A stretch of DNA of 54,725 nucleotides, taken from positions 1 to 54,725 of the forward strand of contig CANQKV010000001.1 in NCBI GenBank assembly GCA_947624545.1. The letters run 5' to 3'. The stretch comes from an uncultured Alphaproteobacteria bacterium. GTDB lineage: Bacteria; Pseudomonadota; Alphaproteobacteria; CAAHEQ01; UBA3637. Positions within the stretch are counted from its first letter, which is position 1. Each line of letters opens with the position of its first letter. The notes below the pieces were generated by a model, which was not told the DNA's origin, made no database searches, and worked only from the letters and a program-made list of their open reading frames with translations. Of this stretch, positions 2,899-46,824 are shown one piece after another. The translations under genes and the position numbers were made by a program.

Positions 2899-3654
2899 AT
2901 GAAAAAATTATTTGCTTTTTTATGGTTTCTTTTTTTAACGGCATGTGCCACGCAAAATCCGTTGACGGATTTTCGATTTCAAACACAACCGGCACCGCCG
3001 TACATTTTGGCAAGCTGGTATCGCATTAATGCCCCCGGCGAGCCTGTTCGCATTTATATTGAGGGTGACGGCGCCGCTTTTAATGCCGACGGCACTCCTT
3101 CGGATAATCCTACGCCGCAAGACGCGTTTTGGCGTAACGTTGCCGCCGATGATCCGCATGCTAATACGGCTTATTTGGGGCGTCCCTGCCAATATATGCA
3201 GGCGGGAGCCTGTTCGCAGGTTGATTGGACAACCGGTCGGTTTTCGCCGCAAATTGTGCGCAGTATGAATAGTGCCGTAACGGCGCTGATGAAAAAAGCA
3301 CAAACCGATCAGGCTGTGTTAATCGGCTATTCGGGCGGTGCGCAAATTGCCGGATTGATTGCCGTTCATGATCCGCATGTGGTGAAAGTGATTACCGTTG
3401 CCGGTGTGTTGGATACCGATGCCTGGACGGCTTATCATCATGACACACCCTTAAAAGAATCGCTGAATTTAAAAGATTATCAAATTGAATTTTTAAAAAT
3501 ACCGCAAATTCATTACGTCGGCGAAAAAGATACCGTTGTTCCGCCTGCGCTCACAAAAGCTTTTGTGCAAGAGGCAGCACCGATGGTGATTGTTCGAAAA
3601 GCAACACATAATGACGGGTTTGAGTCTGTTTTGAACGAGTTATATCAACAATAG
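2899..3654 (+). CDS. Lipoprotein, alpha/beta-hydrolase fold
   Basis: MKKLFAFLWFLFLTAC carries a lipobox (LTAC). A GYSGG nucleophile elbow (GxSxG) and a C-terminal HND are present. The ORF track starts at 2863, but the ATG at 2899 gives a proper signal peptide. Confidence 0.6.
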   Translation: MKKLFAFLWFLFLTACATQNPLTDFRFQTQPAPPYILASWYRINAPGEPVRIYIEGDGAAFNADGTPSDNPTPQDAFWRNVAADDPHANTAYLGRPCQYMQAGACSQVDWTTGRFSPQIVRSMNSAVTALMKKAQTDQAVLIGYSGGAQIAGLIAVHDPHVVKVITVAGVLDTDAWTAYHHDTPLKESLNLKDYQIEFLKIPQIHYVGEKDTVVPPALTKAFVQEAAPMVIVRKATHNDGFESVLNELYQQ

Positions 3655-3662
3655 GATAACAA

Positions 3663-4631
3663 ATGCTTGTGTGGATTTTGGCAGATGATCGCGCCGGAAA
3701 CGTTAATCAGTTGTTGGGCATTGCCGAAGCATTAGGTCATTCTTTCGAACGCAAAAACATTGCTTATACAAAAGCCGTAAAACTGCCGAATTTTTTGCGT
3801 GACGGAACGTTAATCGGGTTAACGAAAGAATCAAAAAAAGCAGTGCAAACAACCGTTTATCCCGATGTGGTGCTTAGTGCCGGTCGGCGCGCCTTTCCCG
3901 TAGCGAGATACATACAAAAAAAATCAAAAGGCAAAACAAAAATCGTGCAATTAATGAATCCGGGTATCAGAGGATTTAAAAGCGCCGATTTAATTGTGTT
4001 GCCCGCGCATGATTTATATAAAGGTAAAGCTGAAAATGTGATGATTGTTGACGGCTCACCGCATCGCGTGACGGAAAAACGCTTAAAGGAAGAACGCCAA
4101 AAATGGCTGCCCGTTTTTGCCGATTATCCCGCACCGCGTTTATCGTTAATTATCGGCGGTGCTACCAAAAACAAGCCTTTTACCGTTGCCGATGCCGAAA
4201 AAATTGTTGCGGCGGTGCGACAATTACACCCGGCTTCCGTTTTAATTACGACATCAAGGCGAACGCCTGCCGATGTGGTCGCGTTTCTCAAAACGGCATT
4301 TCCGCCGAAAACAACATTTTTTTATGCTTTCGGTGATAAGAGCGAAAATCCGTATTTCGGATTACTTGCCTGTGCCGATTTAATTGTGGTAACGGGCGAT
4401 TCGATGTCTATGTGTTCGGAATGTTGCGCCGGAAAGGTTCCCGTTTTTATTTTTGCGCCCGATGAAATGATGAGCGTGAAACATCGCCGTTTTCATCAGA
4501 CTCTTTTTCAAAACGGCTATGCGTTACCCCTCGGCAGCGCTTTAAAACCCGTTAAAGGCGGATTTAATCCCTCTCTTTCGATTGCCGAACGAATTTTAAG
4601 TCTTTTGAATGCGTCTGATATAAAAAAATAA
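3663..4631 (+). CDS. ELM1/DUF1022-family protein (predicted glycosyltransferase-like)
   Basis: The N-terminus WILADDRAGNVNQLLGIAEALG and the TGDSMSMCSE block are typical of the family annotated 'mitochondrial fission ELM1' in alphaproteobacteria. Confidence 0.6.
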   Translation: MLVWILADDRAGNVNQLLGIAEALGHSFERKNIAYTKAVKLPNFLRDGTLIGLTKESKKAVQTTVYPDVVLSAGRRAFPVARYIQKKSKGKTKIVQLMNPGIRGFKSADLIVLPAHDLYKGKAENVMIVDGSPHRVTEKRLKEERQKWLPVFADYPAPRLSLIIGGATKNKPFTVADAEKIVAAVRQLHPASVLITTSRRTPADVVAFLKTAFPPKTTFFYAFGDKSENPYFGLLACADLIVVTGDSMSMCSECCAGKVPVFIFAPDEMMSVKHRRFHQTLFQNGYALPLGSALKPVKGGFNPSLSIAERILSLLNASDIKK

Positions 4632-5857: not shown

Positions 5858-6192
5858 TGGCTATTGTTTCGTTAAAAATCGGCGAAAAATTTTATAAGTT
5901 TTCCTGTGCCGACGGACAAGAAAATTATATGCGTTCACTCGCGGAAAATTTAGACGCCCGCGCCGCACAACTGATAAAGTCGGTCGGCTTTATGCAGGAA
6001 GGACAACTGCTTGCCATGATGTGCTTAATTTTAGCGGAAGAAAAAAATAAACTGGAACGAACGACAAACGCCGTTGTTTTAGATGAATCGGCAAAACAGC
6101 TCGCCGAAAGAATTCAAAATATTGCCAATAAAATCAGTTCCACGGCGCAAGATTTAAATAAATTAATGACTCAAACAAAAGAAGAAGAATGA
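5857..6192 (+). CDS. zapA: Cell division protein ZapA
   Basis: A 111-aa protein with VSLKIGEKFYKFSCADGQENYMRSLAENLDARAAQL, a ZapA-like N-domain followed by a coiled coil. Confidence 0.75.
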   Translation: MAIVSLKIGEKFYKFSCADGQENYMRSLAENLDARAAQLIKSVGFMQEGQLLAMMCLILAEEKNKLERTTNAVVLDESAKQLAERIQNIANKISSTAQDLNKLMTQTKEEE

Positions 6193-7001
6193 AAATATTG
6201 TTTTGCGGAGATGTCGTCGGAAAATCCGGTCGTAAGGTGTTAAGTGAATGCCTGCCGAAACTGAAACGGCAGTTCGCGCTTGATATGGTTATTGTCAATG
6301 GCGAAAACGCCGCACACGGGTTTGGAATTAATCCGAAAATCTATGCCGAACTGTGTCGTGTCGGTGCCGATGTGATTACACTGGGCAACCATTCTTTTGA
6401 TAAAACCGATATTTTTCCGATTCTGGATTCTGAATCCAACATTATCAGACCGTTGAACTGTCCCGAAAACACAATCGGAAAAGGCAGTTGCTTCTTTACA
6501 ACGTCTGCGGGTGTTCGGGTTGCGGTCGTGCAACTGTTGGGGCATATTTTTATGCGCGCCGTTGATGATCCGTTTGTTGCCATGACAAAGTGGCTTTCAA
6601 TGTATTCCCGCGGCAAGGATTATGATGTCTTAATTGTTGATTTTCATGCCGAAGCAACGGCAGAAAAGGTTGGTATGGGCTATTTTCTTGACGGAAAAGC
6701 CTCTTTGGTTGTCGGAACGCATACGCATATTCCGACGGCGGATGCGCGTATTTTGCCGCAAAAAACGGCGTTTATGTCAGATGTCGGTATGTGCGGTGAT
6801 TATCATTCCATTATCGGAATGGTGGTAGAGAGCGCTTTATCCCGATTTATTGATCCCGAAAACAAAAAACGTTTGCAACCTGCTGAAAATAAAGGAACTT
6901 TTTGCGCCGTTTATGTGGAAATCGATGAAACAAGCGGTGAAGCCGTAAAAATTTTTCCGATTCGAATCGGTGCAATACTTGAAAATACACATCAAATATG
7001 A
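6189..7001 (+). CDS. ymdB: YmdB-like metallophosphoesterase (TIGR00282 family)
   Basis: Contains MKILFCGDVVGKSGR, VIVNGENAAHGFGI, LGNH and DFHAEATAEK, the characteristic metallophosphoesterase motifs. Confidence 0.85.
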   Translation: MKILFCGDVVGKSGRKVLSECLPKLKRQFALDMVIVNGENAAHGFGINPKIYAELCRVGADVITLGNHSFDKTDIFPILDSESNIIRPLNCPENTIGKGSCFFTTSAGVRVAVVQLLGHIFMRAVDDPFVAMTKWLSMYSRGKDYDVLIVDFHAEATAEKVGMGYFLDGKASLVVGTHTHIPTADARILPQKTAFMSDVGMCGDYHSIIGMVVESALSRFIDPENKKRLQPAENKGTFCAVYVEIDETSGEAVKIFPIRIGAILENTHQI

Positions 7002-41946: not shown

Positions 41947-41979
41947 GAGATTGATTTTTATTTCTTTTTAATTTTTAAA

Positions 41980-42010
41980 ATCCCTGTCGACTCGGCAGGG
42001 ATTTTTTTTA
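41980..42010 (+). terminator. Rho-independent terminator after htpG
   Basis: ATCCCTG-9 nt-CAGGGAT hairpin followed by T8. Confidence 0.8.
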
Positions 42011-42402
42011 TTGCTTGCCAAAGAAAAAACGATTCGATTTGTTTAAAAAATATTTAAAAAAAAGAGGAAAAACAATCGTTATTTTGAATAAAACATTATT
42101 TATTTGTCACTTTTTTTGGGAAAACGAATCAAAAAATAAAATAAAAATTTTTAAATTCAAAAGATTATAATCTTATGTCTTTCTTTCTTTTCTGATTTTT
42201 TCTTTTTTTTGCCGTTTTGTCTAATTTGTCAAAAACAATACGAAATAATTACGCAAAAAAATGCTTATTTTTTAATAAGTTTTAAAAAAAATTTTTTTTA
42301 TGCCAAAAAACGTTTGACATTTGAGTGCAAGACATGCTAACTGGAATCAATAAAACAAAATTTCTACCATATATTGTGTTTATTTGATAAGAGGAGTACT
42401 AT

Positions 42403-44463
42403 ATGTTGGGTGTTGTGCAAGGCGAAGACAAAAACAATATTGATTTGGGACCTTTAACCGAAGTTATTAAACGTGACGGCGCCAAACACGCGTTTGATGC
42501 CTCAAAAATTGCCATGGCAATCACGCGTGCCGGTGAAGCCACAAACGAATTCGGTACGGATGAAGCTTGGTTGCTGACGCGTCAGGTTATTAAGGTTTTA
42601 AAACATAAGTTTGCTTTCGGGCATATTCCCGCCATTGAACAAATTCAAGATGTTGTCGAACAAGTATTAATTTCATCGAACTATTATAAAACGGCGCGCT
42701 CTTATATTGTTTATCGCGAACAACGGGATAAAATTCGGAAAGACAAGCATGCCGCCATTGATGCCATTTCCTCCATTAACGAATATTTGGATCGCTCCGA
42801 TTGGCGCGTGAATGCTAACGCCAATCAGGGATATTCGCTCGGCGGTTTAATTTTAAATGTGTCGGGAAAAGTGGTTGCCAACTATTGGTTAAATCACGTT
42901 TACACACCGGAAATCGGAGAGGCGCACCGCAACGGCGATTATCATATTCATGATTTGGATATGTTATCGGGTTATTGTGCCGGTTGGTCGTTACGGGTGT
43001 TGTTGACGGAAGGTTTTAACGGCGTGCCGAACAAAGTGGAATCGAATCCGCCGCGTCATTTGGTTTCGGCGTTCAGTCAAATGATTAACTTTTTGGGAAC
43101 ACTGCAAAACGAATGGGCGGGTGCGCAAGCTTTTTCATCGGCAGATACATATTTAGCCCCGTTTGTGCGTATTGAAAAATTATCGTATGAAGATGTGAAG
43201 CAAGCCATGCAGTCTTTCATCTTTAACTTAAATGTGCCGTCGCGTTGGGGAACGCAAACACCGTTTACGAACTTAACGTTTGATTGGACGTGTCCGGATG
43301 ATTTGAAAGATCGTCATCCGATGATCGGCGGTGTGGAACAAGATTTTGTTTACGGCGATTTACAAAAAGAAATGGATATGATTAATCGGGCGTTTTTGGA
43401 AGTGATGGGTGCCGGCGATGCCAAAGGTCGACCGTTCACGTTTCCGATTCCCACTTACAATATTACCGACGAATTTCCGTGGGATTCGCCCAATACCGAA
43501 TATTTGTTTGAAATGACGGCAAAATACGGATTGCCTTACTTTTCAAACTATTTAAATTCCGATATGAAACCGAGTGATATTCGCTCTATGTGCTGTCGTT
43601 TACGGTTGGATTTAACCGAACTGAAAAAACGCGGCGGCGGCTTGTTCGGTTCGGCAGAACAAACGGGATCCATCGGCGTTGTTACCATTAACTGCGCGCG
43701 GTTGGGCTATTTGTTTAAAGGACAGAAAGAAGCTTTATACAAGCGCTTGGACGAGTTGTTGGATTTAGCCAAAACATCTTTGGAAATTAAGAGAAAAACC
43801 ATTTCCATGCATATGGACAGAGGCTTATATCCTTATACACGGCGGTATTTGGGAACATTCCGTAACCACTTTTCAACCATCGGCGTGAACGGTATTAATG
43901 AAATGATTCGCAATTTTACGAACGATATGGAAAACATTACGACCGAATACGGACGCGCATTTGCCAAGGAGCTTTTAACGCATATTCGTGAAAAAATGTT
44001 GGCATTTCAGGCGGAAACGGGCAATATGTATAATTTGGAAGCCACGCCTGCGGAAGGAACGACATATCGTTTTGCCAAAGAAGATCAAAAACGGTACAGC
44101 GGCATTATTCAAGCCGGCACCAAAGACGCTCCTTATTATACCAATTCTTCTCAATTACCGGCAGGCTTTACGGATGATCCGTTCAAGGCGCTGGATTATC
44201 AGGACGATTTACAAACGCAATATACCGGCGGAACAGTCTTACACTTGTATATGAGTGAACGTATTTCATCGGCATCTGCTTGTAAAGCATTAATTCGACG
44301 GGTTTTGGAAAATTATCGGTTGCCGTATGTTTCGGTAACGCCGGTTTATTCCATTTGCCCGAAACACGGCTATATTGCCGGCGAGCACAAATACTGCCCC
44401 ATGTGCGATCAAGAGCTTATCGAAAGAAAGCGCAAAGAAATGGAAGCGGCAGGAAACTTTTAA
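42403..44463 (+). CDS. nrdD: Anaerobic ribonucleoside-triphosphate reductase (class III) large polypeptide, lacking the glycyl-radical C-terminal segment
   Basis: Has an N-terminal ATP-cone (VIKRDGAKHAFDASKIAMAI), the core NrdD barrel (SMCCRLRLD) and a C-terminal Zn ribbon (CPKHG...CPMC). The ORF stops 21 aa after the last Cys, before any RVxGY motif. Confidence 0.9.
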   Translation: MLGVVQGEDKNNIDLGPLTEVIKRDGAKHAFDASKIAMAITRAGEATNEFGTDEAWLLTRQVIKVLKHKFAFGHIPAIEQIQDVVEQVLISSNYYKTARSYIVYREQRDKIRKDKHAAIDAISSINEYLDRSDWRVNANANQGYSLGGLILNVSGKVVANYWLNHVYTPEIGEAHRNGDYHIHDLDMLSGYCAGWSLRVLLTEGFNGVPNKVESNPPRHLVSAFSQMINFLGTLQNEWAGAQAFSSADTYLAPFVRIEKLSYEDVKQAMQSFIFNLNVPSRWGTQTPFTNLTFDWTCPDDLKDRHPMIGGVEQDFVYGDLQKEMDMINRAFLEVMGAGDAKGRPFTFPIPTYNITDEFPWDSPNTEYLFEMTAKYGLPYFSNYLNSDMKPSDIRSMCCRLRLDLTELKKRGGGLFGSAEQTGSIGVVTINCARLGYLFKGQKEALYKRLDELLDLAKTSLEIKRKTISMHMDRGLYPYTRRYLGTFRNHFSTIGVNGINEMIRNFTNDMENITTEYGRAFAKELLTHIREKMLAFQAETGNMYNLEATPAEGTTYRFAKEDQKRYSGIIQAGTKDAPYYTNSSQLPAGFTDDPFKALDYQDDLQTQYTGGTVLHLYMSERISSASACKALIRRVLENYRLPYVSVTPVYSICPKHGYIAGEHKYCPMCDQELIERKRKEMEAAGNF

Positions 44464-44478
44464 AACAGGGAGGATTAT

Positions 44479-44628
44479 ATGAGTCAAAAACCTCAACAAG
44501 TCAAGAAAAAAATCTCAACACAAAAGCCATTTGTCTGGGTATCAAATTCCCAAAAAAAAGAAAAGGGGCTTCGGCAGTTGTCGTTTGATGATTACTTGAA
44601 AAAAACAAAGCAACACACGAAAGGATAA
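44479..44628 (+). CDS. Hypothetical 49-aa lysine-rich protein (micro-ORF between the nrdD pieces)
   Basis: The ATG at 44479 follows a GGGAGGA ribosome-binding site. The product is MSQKPQQVKKKISTQKPFVWVSNSQKKEKGLRQLSFDDYLKKTKQHTKG. It is in the same reading frame as nrdD, separated only by TAA plus 5 codons. It is below the ORF-track length cutoff. Confidence 0.35.
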   Translation: MSQKPQQVKKKISTQKPFVWVSNSQKKEKGLRQLSFDDYLKKTKQHTKG

Positions 44629-44630
44629 TC

Positions 44631-44819
44631 ATGACAGACACGGAACTTTTGAAAAAACACGAACAAGAACGGCAACCGGTAGAATGCTGGACGCGGGTTA
44701 TGGGTTATTTCCGCCCGTACAGCCAATTTAACAAAGGTAAAAAATCGGAATTCAACGAACGGAAATGGTTTGTTGAGGAAAATTGCGGGTGTGCCTGTAA
44801 GAACGAAAAAGCCGCTTAA
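44631..44819 (+). CDS. Stand-alone glycyl-radical domain of class III ribonucleotide reductase (NrdD C-terminal segment as a separate 62-aa protein)
   Basis: TRVMGYFRPYSQFNKGKKSEFNERKW matches the NrdD glycyl-radical signature (RVxGY ... NxGKxxExxxR). It has its own AAAGGA ribosome-binding site and ATG, and its frame differs from nrdD. Confidence 0.75.
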   Translation: MTDTELLKKHEQERQPVECWTRVMGYFRPYSQFNKGKKSEFNERKWFVEENCGCACKNEKAA

Positions 44820-44831
44820 TCGGAGTGTATT

Positions 44832-45521
44832 ATGTTAACGCCGGCCGGATTGGTTCCCTTCACGACTATTGATTTTCCGAACCGTTTGGCCGCCGTTATT
44901 TTTTTTCAGGGGTGTCCGCTCAGATGCCCCTTTTGTCATAATCCGAATTTGCAACCGATTCAAACCGAAAGTACGGCACAATGGAGCGAAATCGTTTCAT
45001 TTTTAAAAACCCGTCAAAAACAGTTGGACGGTGTTGTTTTCAGCGGCGGCGAGCCGTTAATGCAGGCAGATTTGAAAAAAGGCATTCAAACCGTTAAAGA
45101 AATGGGTTTTCAAACAGCTCTTCATACCAGCGGTGTTTTCCCCGATAAGTTTGCCGATGTTTTACCGCTGATTGATTGGGTCGGATTGGATATTAAAGCA
45201 CCTTGGGCAAAATATTCTTTATTAACCGGACGACCCGACATCAGCGAATCGGTTCAAAAAAGCTTACGTCTGTTAATTCAATCACAAACGTCTTATGAAG
45301 TGCGAACGACATTGGATCCGCGATATTTAACCGTTGATGATGTTTATCAATCGGCGAAAGAATTGTTGGCTGAAAACGTACAAACTTATACGTTGCAAAA
45401 ATATCGCACGTTTGATGCGGATAAAAATCCGCCGCAACAAAGTCAAATCGATTCGTTTTTTAAAGATACGGACTTAATGACTTACTTACAAAATCATTTT
45501 TCGCATTTTACTTGTCGATAG
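44832..45521 (+). CDS. nrdG: Anaerobic ribonucleotide reductase activating protein (radical SAM)
   Basis: Contains the CPLRCPFCHN (CxxxCxxC) radical-SAM cluster motif and VVFSGGEPL, and lies adjacent to nrdD. Confidence 0.9.
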   Translation: MLTPAGLVPFTTIDFPNRLAAVIFFQGCPLRCPFCHNPNLQPIQTESTAQWSEIVSFLKTRQKQLDGVVFSGGEPLMQADLKKGIQTVKEMGFQTALHTSGVFPDKFADVLPLIDWVGLDIKAPWAKYSLLTGRPDISESVQKSLRLLIQSQTSYEVRTTLDPRYLTVDDVYQSAKELLAENVQTYTLQKYRTFDADKNPPQQSQIDSFFKDTDLMTYLQNHFSHFTCR

Positions 45522-45612
45522 TAAATAAAAAGCTTGTTTTTTTGTTCTTTTTCGGCTATAATCAAAAAGAAAAGTGTTATTATGTGCAAGCCCGAAAGAC
45601 GGAGGCAAAAAA

Positions 45613-46824
45613 ATGTCGGAAACAAAACAAAATGTCAATATCCCTCTTGAAGAAACCGAATTGAATCTTTCTTCTTTTGATTTTCAACAACAGTTGGAAC
45701 TGTTAAATCATCAGAAAGCGGAATTATTACATCGAAAAAAAGTTGCCGATCATTTTTCTCAAACCGCCCAGCGAAAATTAGATGAAATTGATGAACAGAT
45801 TTTAATTCTCAAAGGCTTTTTGGGAGAGAAAGAAACAAATGAAATCAAGCCCGAAGTCGTGATTGAAGATAACACAAACGAACGTTTTCAATCGAATCCG
45901 ACACAAAAGAAGTTTGAACCGCGTTTAATTGTAAAAGGAAAATCGGAAGAAGAGGCGGAAGCCGAACAGGAAAAAGAGAAAGAAGCGGCAACGCAACAAG
46001 CCCAACCCAATCAACCGCAACAACCGCAACAACCGAAAACGCCCGCTCAACCGAATCAACCGCAGCAACCGCAGCCGCAGCAGGAATTAACACCTGCCGA
46101 ACGGTTAGAGCAAATTCGGCAAAAGCTGACACAACGGGATCCGCGCAAGCAAAAAGAAGGATTGGAAGAGCTTAAAAAGCCCGAAAATAAAGATTTGGGT
46201 AAAGATGATCCGGTCTTTCAAAAGTTGCAAAAAAATGCCGAAAAACGGGTGGAACGTTTTGATAAAATTCGGGAAAGTCTGCGTAAAAACTTAAAAACGT
46301 TAATGCAATCCGATTCGTCAGTCGTTAAAAAGAATCTGGATCATATCCGTGCCGGTCGAATTGGTATGGGTATGGCGGGAATGAAAGAAATCGGCAAAAC
46401 AACCGATCCGCGCTTTAACGAAGTTGCAAAAGCCGCCAAAGGGTTATTTGAAAATGTAAGTGCGCTTTATAAAGAGTTTGATATTAAGCCCGAAGAAGCG
46501 TTATCGCGAGAAACATTGAATGAAGCGCGTCCGACTTTTACGCGGCAAATGGGCTTTAAATCGAAAGAAGATAAAGATATTGATCGCAATTCGCGTCAGA
46601 ACCGTTGGTTGGGACAATCCAACGAACTCAGCGAAGAAGAGCGGCATACTTACAAAAAAATTAAAGATATTTACGGTGTTGAAGTTGATAAATTACCGCC
46701 GGTTGATGCGCAAACGCAGCAAGATATGTGGATTATTCGGGAAATTGTTAAAGAAACGGCACAAAATACAACGACAAAAATTAAGCCGGCTTTAATGTTA
46801 AAATCGGGCGGTAATTCTTTATAA
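45613..46824 (+). CDS. Hypothetical protein with coiled-coil and Pro/Gln-repeat region
   Basis: The ATG at 45613 follows a GGAGG ribosome-binding site. The protein has a QPNQPQQPQQPKTPAQPNQPQQPQPQQ low-complexity block. I recognise no family. Confidence 0.5.
   Translation: MSETKQNVNIPLEETELNLSSFDFQQQLELLNHQKAELLHRKKVADHFSQTAQRKLDEIDEQILILKGFLGEKETNEIKPEVVIEDNTNERFQSNPTQKKFEPRLIVKGKSEEEAEAEQEKEKEAATQQAQPNQPQQPQQPKTPAQPNQPQQPQPQQELTPAERLEQIRQKLTQRDPRKQKEGLEELKKPENKDLGKDDPVFQKLQKNAEKRVERFDKIRESLRKNLKTLMQSDSSVVKKNLDHIRAGRIGMGMAGMKEIGKTTDPRFNEVAKAAKGLFENVSALYKEFDIKPEEALSRETLNEARPTFTRQMGFKSKEDKDIDRNSRQNRWLGQSNELSEEERHTYKKIKDIYGVEVDKLPPVDAQTQQDMWIIREIVKETAQNTTTKIKPALMLKSGGNSL

Follow-up and report, generated by a model that had tools for sequence, protein, structure and literature searches.

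The window analyzed here, a stretch of 54,725 nucleotides from an uncultured alphaproteobacterium (contig CANQKV010000001.1), encodes a class III ribonucleotide reductase, NrdD, that is split over two genes, wherein the catalytic core and the glycyl-radical loop are carried by separate polypeptides. This split is conserved across hundreds of bacteria, all of its parts are under purifying selection, and the gene for the small, loop-bearing protein also occurs as lone copies in chromosomes and in phages. The evidence moderately favors reading the locus as a functional two-polypeptide class III reductase in which the radical carrier is a separable, and probably replaceable, module.

The NrdD core and its detached glycine loop

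The core polypeptide has been characterized by comparison with profile hidden Markov models (HMMs) and with known structures. It matches the Pfam ATP-cone (5e-21), positions 2-534 of the 562 positions of the Pfam NRDD profile (5.7e-174), positions 3-662 of the 684 positions of NCBIfam NF006126 (1136 bits, cut-off 548) and TIGR02487 (466 bits, cut-off 326), and its alignment to T. maritima NrdD (PDB 4coi, 651 residues) covers residues 100-614. An earlier note on this DNA, made from the sequence alone, had recognized an NrdD of 686 residues with an ATP-cone, a barrel and a Zn ribbon and with no radical motif, and the HMM matches agree with that description. Both the barrel Cys192 (GYC192AGW) and the finger loop S-M-C397-C398-R are present in the core and are invariant across 13 aligned pairs; finger loops of this double-Cys MCCR type have been described previously (PMC9669993). 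The predicted Zn ribbon has the form C652-x2-H655...C665-x2-C668, wherein a His replaces the second Cys, and is kept in all 120 of the nearest homologues. These homologues (84-100% identity, 681-716 residues) all stop at the same ...CPxCDxELIxxKRKExE... tail. The core itself ends 18 residues beyond the last Zn-ribbon Cys (C668...F686), which corrects the 21 residues counted earlier.

The segment absent from the core is found in the small open reading frame (ORF), which matches only the ends of the same models: positions 531-561 of 562 in Pfam NRDD (E 6e-8, 32.2 bits, cut-off 26.2) and positions 649-682 of 684 in NF006126. Similarly, the small protein aligns to residues 612-643 of T. maritima NrdD (4coi), a region that includes the RIVGY radical loop, as anticipated by the proposal that this ORF corresponds to the NrdD C-terminus. 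These alignments put the break in homology at the precise boundary of Zn ribbon and glycine loop, which is where the HMM comparison suggested in the note finds that the core ends and the small ORF begins. The small ORF lies 167 nt downstream of the core in an unlike reading frame, and it has an ATG and a ribosome-binding site (AAGGA, 6 nt 5' of the ATG) of its own; coordinates, frames and translations all bear out what had been read from the sequence on these points. The glycine loop, which in NrdD is expected on the barrel polypeptide, is thus found in a separate ORF and another frame. In its sequence the locus conforms to a class III reductase on each point tested, with the single-chain placement of this loop as the exception.

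Searches with the small protein indicate that it is not an isolated oddity. A word index returned 285 homologues, and the feature is far beyond what chance would produce. The best 120 of these 285 are all 57-86 residues long; their start, MTDxEIL, is conserved, and the core ...E.W.RVMGYFRP..N.GK..EF..R.WF.E is invariant. Furthermore, when 1.84 billion cluster representatives (50%-identity clusters) were searched exhaustively with a profile, 3873 matched at E<=1e-3, including 795 at E<=1e-10; the best 150 of the 3873 are all 52-152 residues long, and 145 of these 150 contain R[VI]MGY. The radical glycine of the window's protein is expected at G25 in RVMGYFRP. When the protein was modeled alone using AlphaFold2, the model was of low confidence (predicted local distance difference test score, pLDDT, 59) and mostly disordered with a short N-terminal helix, and such disorder would fit a protein that folds on docking.

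Cysteine residues are a recurrent feature of the small protein. A Cys before the radical loop is conserved at either of two positions, as QPVECW in the gut alphaproteobacterial clade (C19 in the window, 44685-44690) and as QPCEVW elsewhere. The window's protein also has a Cys-rich tail, NCGCACKNEKAA, comprising residues N51-C57 (NCGCAC, with a CxC motif; window 44781-44798). This CxC tail is present in the gut clade and absent in Paracoccus and Bradyrhizobium, and it could act as a redox tail or bind a metal.

Selection on the genes was estimated as the ratio of nonsynonymous to synonymous substitution rates (dN/dS) between the window and L018, a relative with a 98%-identical core. The resulting values are 0.013 for the core, 0.06 for the small ORF and 0.15 for nrdG. 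The features of the operon are collected in Table 1.

Table 1. Features of the split nrdD operon in the window.
Feature	Coordinates	Strand	Description
Terminator hairpin of htpG	41977-42005		Parts the operon from the upstream gene htpG
Candidate operon promoter	42314-42342	+	TTGACA, 17 nt, CTAACT; read by eye, uncalled by the consensus promoter scan
nrdD core	42403-44463	+	686 aa, 77.9 kDa; allosteric ATP-cone, ten-stranded catalytic barrel and Zn ribbon, without glycyl-radical loop
49-aa basic ORF	44479-44628	+	5.8 kDa, pI 10.3; between the two nrdD pieces; function not assigned by homology
Free-standing glycyl-radical subunit of NrdD	44631-44819	+	62 aa, 7.5 kDa
nrdG, radical-SAM (S-adenosylmethionine) activase	44832-45521	+	229 aa

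The ORF list and the sequence together reveal four closely spaced cistrons on the + strand, with intervals of 15, 2 and 12 nt. A candidate NrdR box, CTACCATATATTGTGT (42364-42379, +), lies just 5' of the nrdD ribosome-binding site and matches 13 of the 16 positions of the NrdR-box consensus. The assignment of the fourth cistron as nrdG, which had been said to follow directly, is borne out by the ORF that lies 12 nt past the small one, which matches TIGR02495 (NrdG2; 4.9e-58, 195.7 bits, cut-off 131); the same ORF also matches Radical_SAM and Fer4_12. No extra copy of the small gene was found within the window, and an Rfam scan at E<=1 detected no intron or RNA family inside the operon. Located 3' of nrdG is an ORF of 416 residues (45574-46824) with a long, low-complexity middle rich in Gln, Pro and Glu.

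The spacer between the two nrdD pieces had been seen as a gap of 167 nt; the length was right, and the 49-aa ORF inside it was overlooked. This ORF is preceded by a strong ribosome-binding site, GGGAGGA (44468-44474), and its stop is 2 nt 5' of the ATG of the small ORF. Its copy in L018 is 88% identical (dN/dS 0.11), and a 60-aa relative occurs in L020, L184 and L185, with F.W...Q..F.DYLK..QH..G in common. No family in Pfam, NCBIfam or PHROG matches the 49-aa ORF, which was not found at the other split loci checked. A homing endonuclease in the spacer was considered and rejected, since the ORF matches no such family. The 49-aa insert is the sole local peculiarity of this locus, which is otherwise an ordinary member of the split subfamily.

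Conservation and spread of the split

The arrangement in the window recurs unchanged in four assemblies of this species that were made independently. The relatives of the window are uncultured gut Alphaproteobacteria (rabbit, ruminant, chicken and human samples), and cores that are 67-75% identical, from other Alphaproteobacteria, a Usitatibacter bin and an Acidobacteria bin, are broken at the same place. A genome scan gave 571 matching stretches, and the split was seen in dozens of further species-representative loci. In approximately 60 loci with cores 53-98% identical, the core is followed by the small ORF and, in stretches long enough to show it, by nrdG; the order core, small gene, nrdG is kept in about 50 loci.

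The details of the junction vary among these loci. The gap between core and small ORF ranges from -4 to 197 nt, with 0-40 nt at most split loci, and one phage contig has the order core, nrdG, small ORF with a gap of 689 nt. The core stop codons TAA, TAG and TGA are all used, and the two frames are the same in some loci and different in others. Every small ORF seen at the sequence level starts at its own ATG, and an AGGAG-like ribosome-binding site is present at the junctions that were read, which is the outcome that the proposed survey of the start and ribosome-binding site had looked for.

The split is also found in cultured bacteria. It occurs in Pleomorphomonas, both in a metagenome-assembled genome and in cultured P. 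koreensis DSM 23070. In the complete RefSeq replicon of Bradyrhizobium ottawaense, a 678-aa 'ribonucleoside triphosphate reductase' is followed by a 63-aa gene named nrdD by the annotation pipeline PGAP, and in that of Sulfuricystis the pieces have 712 and 57 residues. Both ORFs are present at the sequence level in Paracoccus denitrificans and in Cupriavidus metallidurans CH34, in which the locus (L179) is on the megaplasmid NC_007974.2 at 1831772-1838900. The CH34 genome paper gives NrdDG as Rmet_5137 and Rmet_5139 and leaves the intervening gene unmentioned (PMC2864759); this gene is presumably the small glycyl-radical ORF. Additionally, 132 Ralstonia replicons match at the protein level, and a protein-level match was likewise seen in Ralstonia solanacearum. 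Small genes of the alphaproteobacterial kind also occur in L051, which is binned as Holdemanella biformis and has an adjoining core and nrdG, and in L078, which is binned as Lactobacillales; the placement of both may reflect binning contamination.

The split is no quirk of one locus but the usual arrangement in a large NrdD subfamily, whose members include well-known cultured bacteria, and it is both ancient and widespread. The sequence fact is already in the databases, where RefSeq annotates both pieces without comment.

Fused relatives of the split enzymes exist as well, and they include Acidiphilium multivorum, Actinomyces oris and a group of 596-aa phage NrdDs without the ATP-cone region. 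In an alignment of the junctions, the fused forms have 3-12 residues from the last Zn-ribbon Cys to CEVWTRVMGY. The split forms have about 35-40 additional residues that are shared between both new termini: the cores end in a charged tail of 18-22 residues (D.ELI..KR...), and the small proteins begin with an N-terminal segment of 15-20 residues ending in (D/E)ERQP. A 106-aa fragment at a contig edge, P0318, is the C-terminus of a fused NrdD whose long linker includes EDRQP (...CPKCDEVAILKSAGSISCVKDLAVEDRQPCEVWTRVMGY), and the ERQP segment is consequently not exclusive to split forms. The long linker may predate the fission, or P0318 may be a re-fusion. In a neighbor-joining tree of the cores, the fused forms are nested among the split ones with no clean dichotomy; since this tree carries no support values, no conclusion on the number of fission events is drawn from it.

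Lone copies of the small gene in chromosomes and phages

Roughly 160 loci were fetched with the small-protein profile and inspected over 4-6 kb on either side. At 79 of these loci the small gene has no nrdD core within that distance, and at 78 of the 79 nrdG is missing there as well. The lone copies keep all of the conserved motifs. Their dN/dS values are 0.02-0.10 for chromosomal copies, 0.04 for prophage copies and 0.15-0.26 for the second of the two phage groups described below, and the lone copies are under purifying selection.

The lone copies have three main contexts. The first is that of temperate phages, in which the small gene is found in the series endolysin, 62-aa ORF, small gene, integrase, in some cases within bacterial contigs of up to 194 kb. 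The second phage context comprises a T7-like DNA polymerase, a gp2.5-like single-stranded DNA-binding protein, a Cas4-like exonuclease and a Holliday-junction resolvase, followed by the small gene, a DUF6378 gene and an endolysin. The third is chromosomal and has been seen in seven species representatives of gut Alphaproteobacteria (L019, L022, L023, L030, L034, L037 and L043, with the small gene near position 3500-4200), wherein the small gene lies between a gene for an outer-membrane beta-barrel protein and a transglutaminase-like gene; in one lineage alanine racemase is next. In five genome bins an operon copy is accompanied by a lone one. The two are 66-87% identical in four of these bins, and the lone copy of the fifth has diverged further; one bin has its operon and lone copies on a single contig, at a distance of about 82 kb.

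Viral contigs hold both flavors of the small protein, the ..VECW.. form of the window's clade and the ..CEVW.. form of other clades. The small protein is matched by the PHROGs family phrog_4132, which is labeled 'unknown function'. A tblastn search of the isolated phage genomes of INPHARED with the small protein gave no match, and the phage copies are therefore known from metagenomic viral contigs and prophages only. Two further features of these phages were recorded. A temperate phage with a lone small gene (L098) encodes at 906-2018 a reverse transcriptase (phrog_1423, 1.2e-66) that may belong to a diversity-generating retroelement. In the phages with a T7-like polymerase (L105, at 6192-6458, and L100, L101, L103, L104 and L106), the small gene is always followed by the DUF6378 protein, whose PHROG label is 'phosphofructokinase', and then by the endolysin.

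A proposed two-subunit reductase, its alternatives and its relation to known systems

The mechanism suggested by these observations begins with co-transcription of the four cistrons. NrdG would then take a hydrogen from the glycine of the small subunit, and the glycine loop RVMGYFRP, which is the sole such loop and would be supplied by the small subunit, would enter the core barrel beside the finger-loop cysteine. The loop would probably be held in place by the core tail D.ELI..KR... together with the N-terminal helix of the small subunit that ends in (D/E)ERQP. King and Reichard reportedly found in 1995 that E. coli NrdD is cleaved by oxygen at Gly681. In the split enzyme, oxygen cleavage at the glycine would destroy the 62-residue peptide alone and leave the native core reusable, since the radical carrier would not be covalently attached. 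Finally, the core could receive a new carrier, made from the operon copy or from further copies in the chromosome or in infecting phages.

We infer that the two pieces assemble non-covalently, that the small protein is activated as a free peptide and that it can be exchanged for repair. Three observations support these steps: the pieces are exactly complementary, extra terminal segments are specific to the split forms, and the selected lone copies have no obvious use unless they load onto a core encoded elsewhere. Several points weigh against this interpretation. Complex formation, a radical on the peptide and its exchange are deduced from sequence. The small gene of the window is a stoichiometrically coupled member of its operon and not a spare under separate regulation. 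Because only flanks of 4-6 kb were inspected, a core could lie at a distance on the same phage genome. Furthermore, some taxa whose enzymes are fused (Actinomyces oris, Acidiphilium) also live exposed to oxygen, which makes any link between the split and oxygen exposure a loose one.

The strongest competitor to an exchangeable carrier is neutral gene fission, in which the two pieces form an obligate, fixed one-to-one heterodimer that acts like single-chain NrdD, gains nothing in exchange or repair, and has extra copies for dosage only. Such a heterodimer accounts for the operon copy equally well, and it suits the tight operon packing, the translational coupling and the short gaps at most loci (-4 to about 20 nt); the split class II enzyme NrdJa/NrdJb also provides a precedent without a known spare-part role. 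On the other hand, about half of the loci hold a lone small gene under purifying selection, and the phages have no core within 6 kb. Fixed pairing leaves these lone and phage copies unexplained, because a subunit that is never exchanged would be useless there, and for this reason neutral fission is considered the less likely account, although a serious one. It is far less probable that the main job of the small protein lies elsewhere, as a decoy or regulator of NrdG or as a radical donor to something other than the core next to it, with a core that is inactive or draws on another radical source. Lone copies without a neighboring core, the Cys before the loop and the Cys-rich tail, both unexplained, would be in keeping with such a job. 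Nevertheless, the core retains the barrel Cys, the SMCCR finger loop and the Zn ribbon at a dN/dS of 0.013, the small ORF is precisely the segment that the core lacks, and the order core, small gene, nrdG is conserved.

Two explanations would remove the split altogether. Recoding could yield one polypeptide by frameshifting, stop read-through, ribosomal bypass, or RNA or protein splicing, and some relatives do have the ORFs in frame with a single stop between them (L013, gap 0). This is very improbable in the window, where the pieces are 167 nt apart in unlike frames with another ORF between them; in addition, lone copies have nothing to fuse to, and the operon contains no Rfam intron. Read-through, frameshifting and bypass were also rejected as a general mechanism, as gaps, frames and stops vary while the ATG of the small ORF is conserved. 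A sequencing or assembly error or a decaying pseudogene is less credible still. It is favored only by the prior expectation of a single-chain NrdD, and it is contradicted by the agreement among four assemblies of the same species and complete RefSeq replicons of cultured bacteria; error and decay were rejected given an arrangement conserved across loci and dN/dS values far below 1.

Under the favored reading of a two-subunit reductase with a separable radical carrier, a broader proposal may be put forward, although more tentatively. The small proteins could constitute a large family of exchangeable radical cartridges that has gone undescribed, and they would then be the first spare-part system to come from beyond the formate lyases, with which bacteria that meet oxygen keep the core and swap the carrier, and with which phages recharge the reductase of their host. 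If this is true, intermittently oxygen-exposed bacteria would retain a costly 78-kDa core and renew a 7-kDa carrier, some with the aid of a second chromosomal copy, and the 190-bp gene of the phages would be a minimal auxiliary metabolic gene in place of a 2-kb nrdD.

In the full-text literature searched, which covered few subscription-journal papers, no account was found of an NrdD in two pieces, nor of any spare-part protein that serves ribonucleotide reductase, and the split subfamily is apparently large and undescribed. [quoted passage not shown] A natural family with a separate class III radical domain is a candidate answer to this question beyond pyruvate formate-lyase (PFL). As the split is present in the genetically tractable Paracoccus denitrificans, Cupriavidus metallidurans and Bradyrhizobium, these proposals are directly testable. 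There are also practical consequences. Expression of NrdD and NrdG from the split subfamily without the small ORF would probably give an inactive enzyme, and reductase surveys that filter by length (400-1100 aa in PMC9531940) lose the small subunit. The naturally detached radical domain would also offer a useful tool for studying how the activase gains access to the buried glycine loop.

Canonical NrdD, which is a single chain in phage T4, E. coli, T. maritima (4coi) and Prevotella copri (8p23), has the same barrel, ATP-cone, Zn ribbon and glycine loop as the split enzyme and likewise a neighboring NrdG. In contrast to the canonical enzyme, its glycine loop is on a separate polypeptide, and about 35-40 extra residues flank the break. 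Reductase catalytic subunits in two ORFs have precedents in other classes. The class Ia NrdA of Aeromonas phage Aeh1, reportedly the subject of work by Friedrich et al. in PNAS in 2007, is said to be split by the homing endonuclease gene mobE and still to assemble into an active enzyme. It resembles the window in having an ORF inserted between the pieces; however, that split is recent and lineage-restricted with a recognizable homing endonuclease, whereas the 49-aa insert has no nuclease match and most split nrdD loci are free of inserts. In Pseudomonas aeruginosa, the class II NrdJa and NrdJb are encoded by two adjacent genes, wherein the second chain bears a Zn-finger/IscU-like reductant-delivery domain and NrdJa carries additional terminal sequence that is proposed to serve in docking (PMC9669993, PMC4860495). 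As in the split NrdD, a catalytic chain is divided over two genes and a C-terminal functional module is detached. The class is different, the detached module is not the radical carrier, and no lone or phage-borne NrdJb was met with in the literature consulted. Neither Aeh1 NrdA nor NrdJa/NrdJb detaches its radical carrier.

The closest functional parallel is with GrcA/YfiD and T4 Y06I, which, like the protein described here, are small free-standing proteins with a glycyl-radical loop that are partly disordered alone, and a phage-encoded version exists in both systems. GrcA has about 127 residues, compared with 62 here. Activation of YfiD/GrcA (GrcA being about 14 kDa) and of T4 Y06I takes place on the free protein, and both restore PFL that oxygen has cleaved (PMC8683613). 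A similar course would be expected for the small NrdD subunit, in which the cognate radical-SAM activase acts and a large catalytic barrel is then completed. In contrast to GrcA, the small protein is homologous to the C-terminus of NrdD and not to that of PFL: PF01228, the PFL-type Gly_radical family, gave no match at E<=0.1, and the sole significant match is to the NRDD C-terminus. Moreover, the partner core never has a glycyl-radical domain of its own, which would make the small protein a constitutive subunit and not a repair part. The earlier comparison of this peptide with GrcA/YfiD therefore needs amendment on two counts, as there is no PF01228 domain and the core has no radical domain to lose. 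What gains real support is the idea of a detachable part, from the selected lone copies in chromosomes and phages. A cofactor of the GrcA kind is expected to be encoded apart from its partner, and the small subunit of NrdD is encoded both ways, inside the operon in the window and as 79 lone copies elsewhere.

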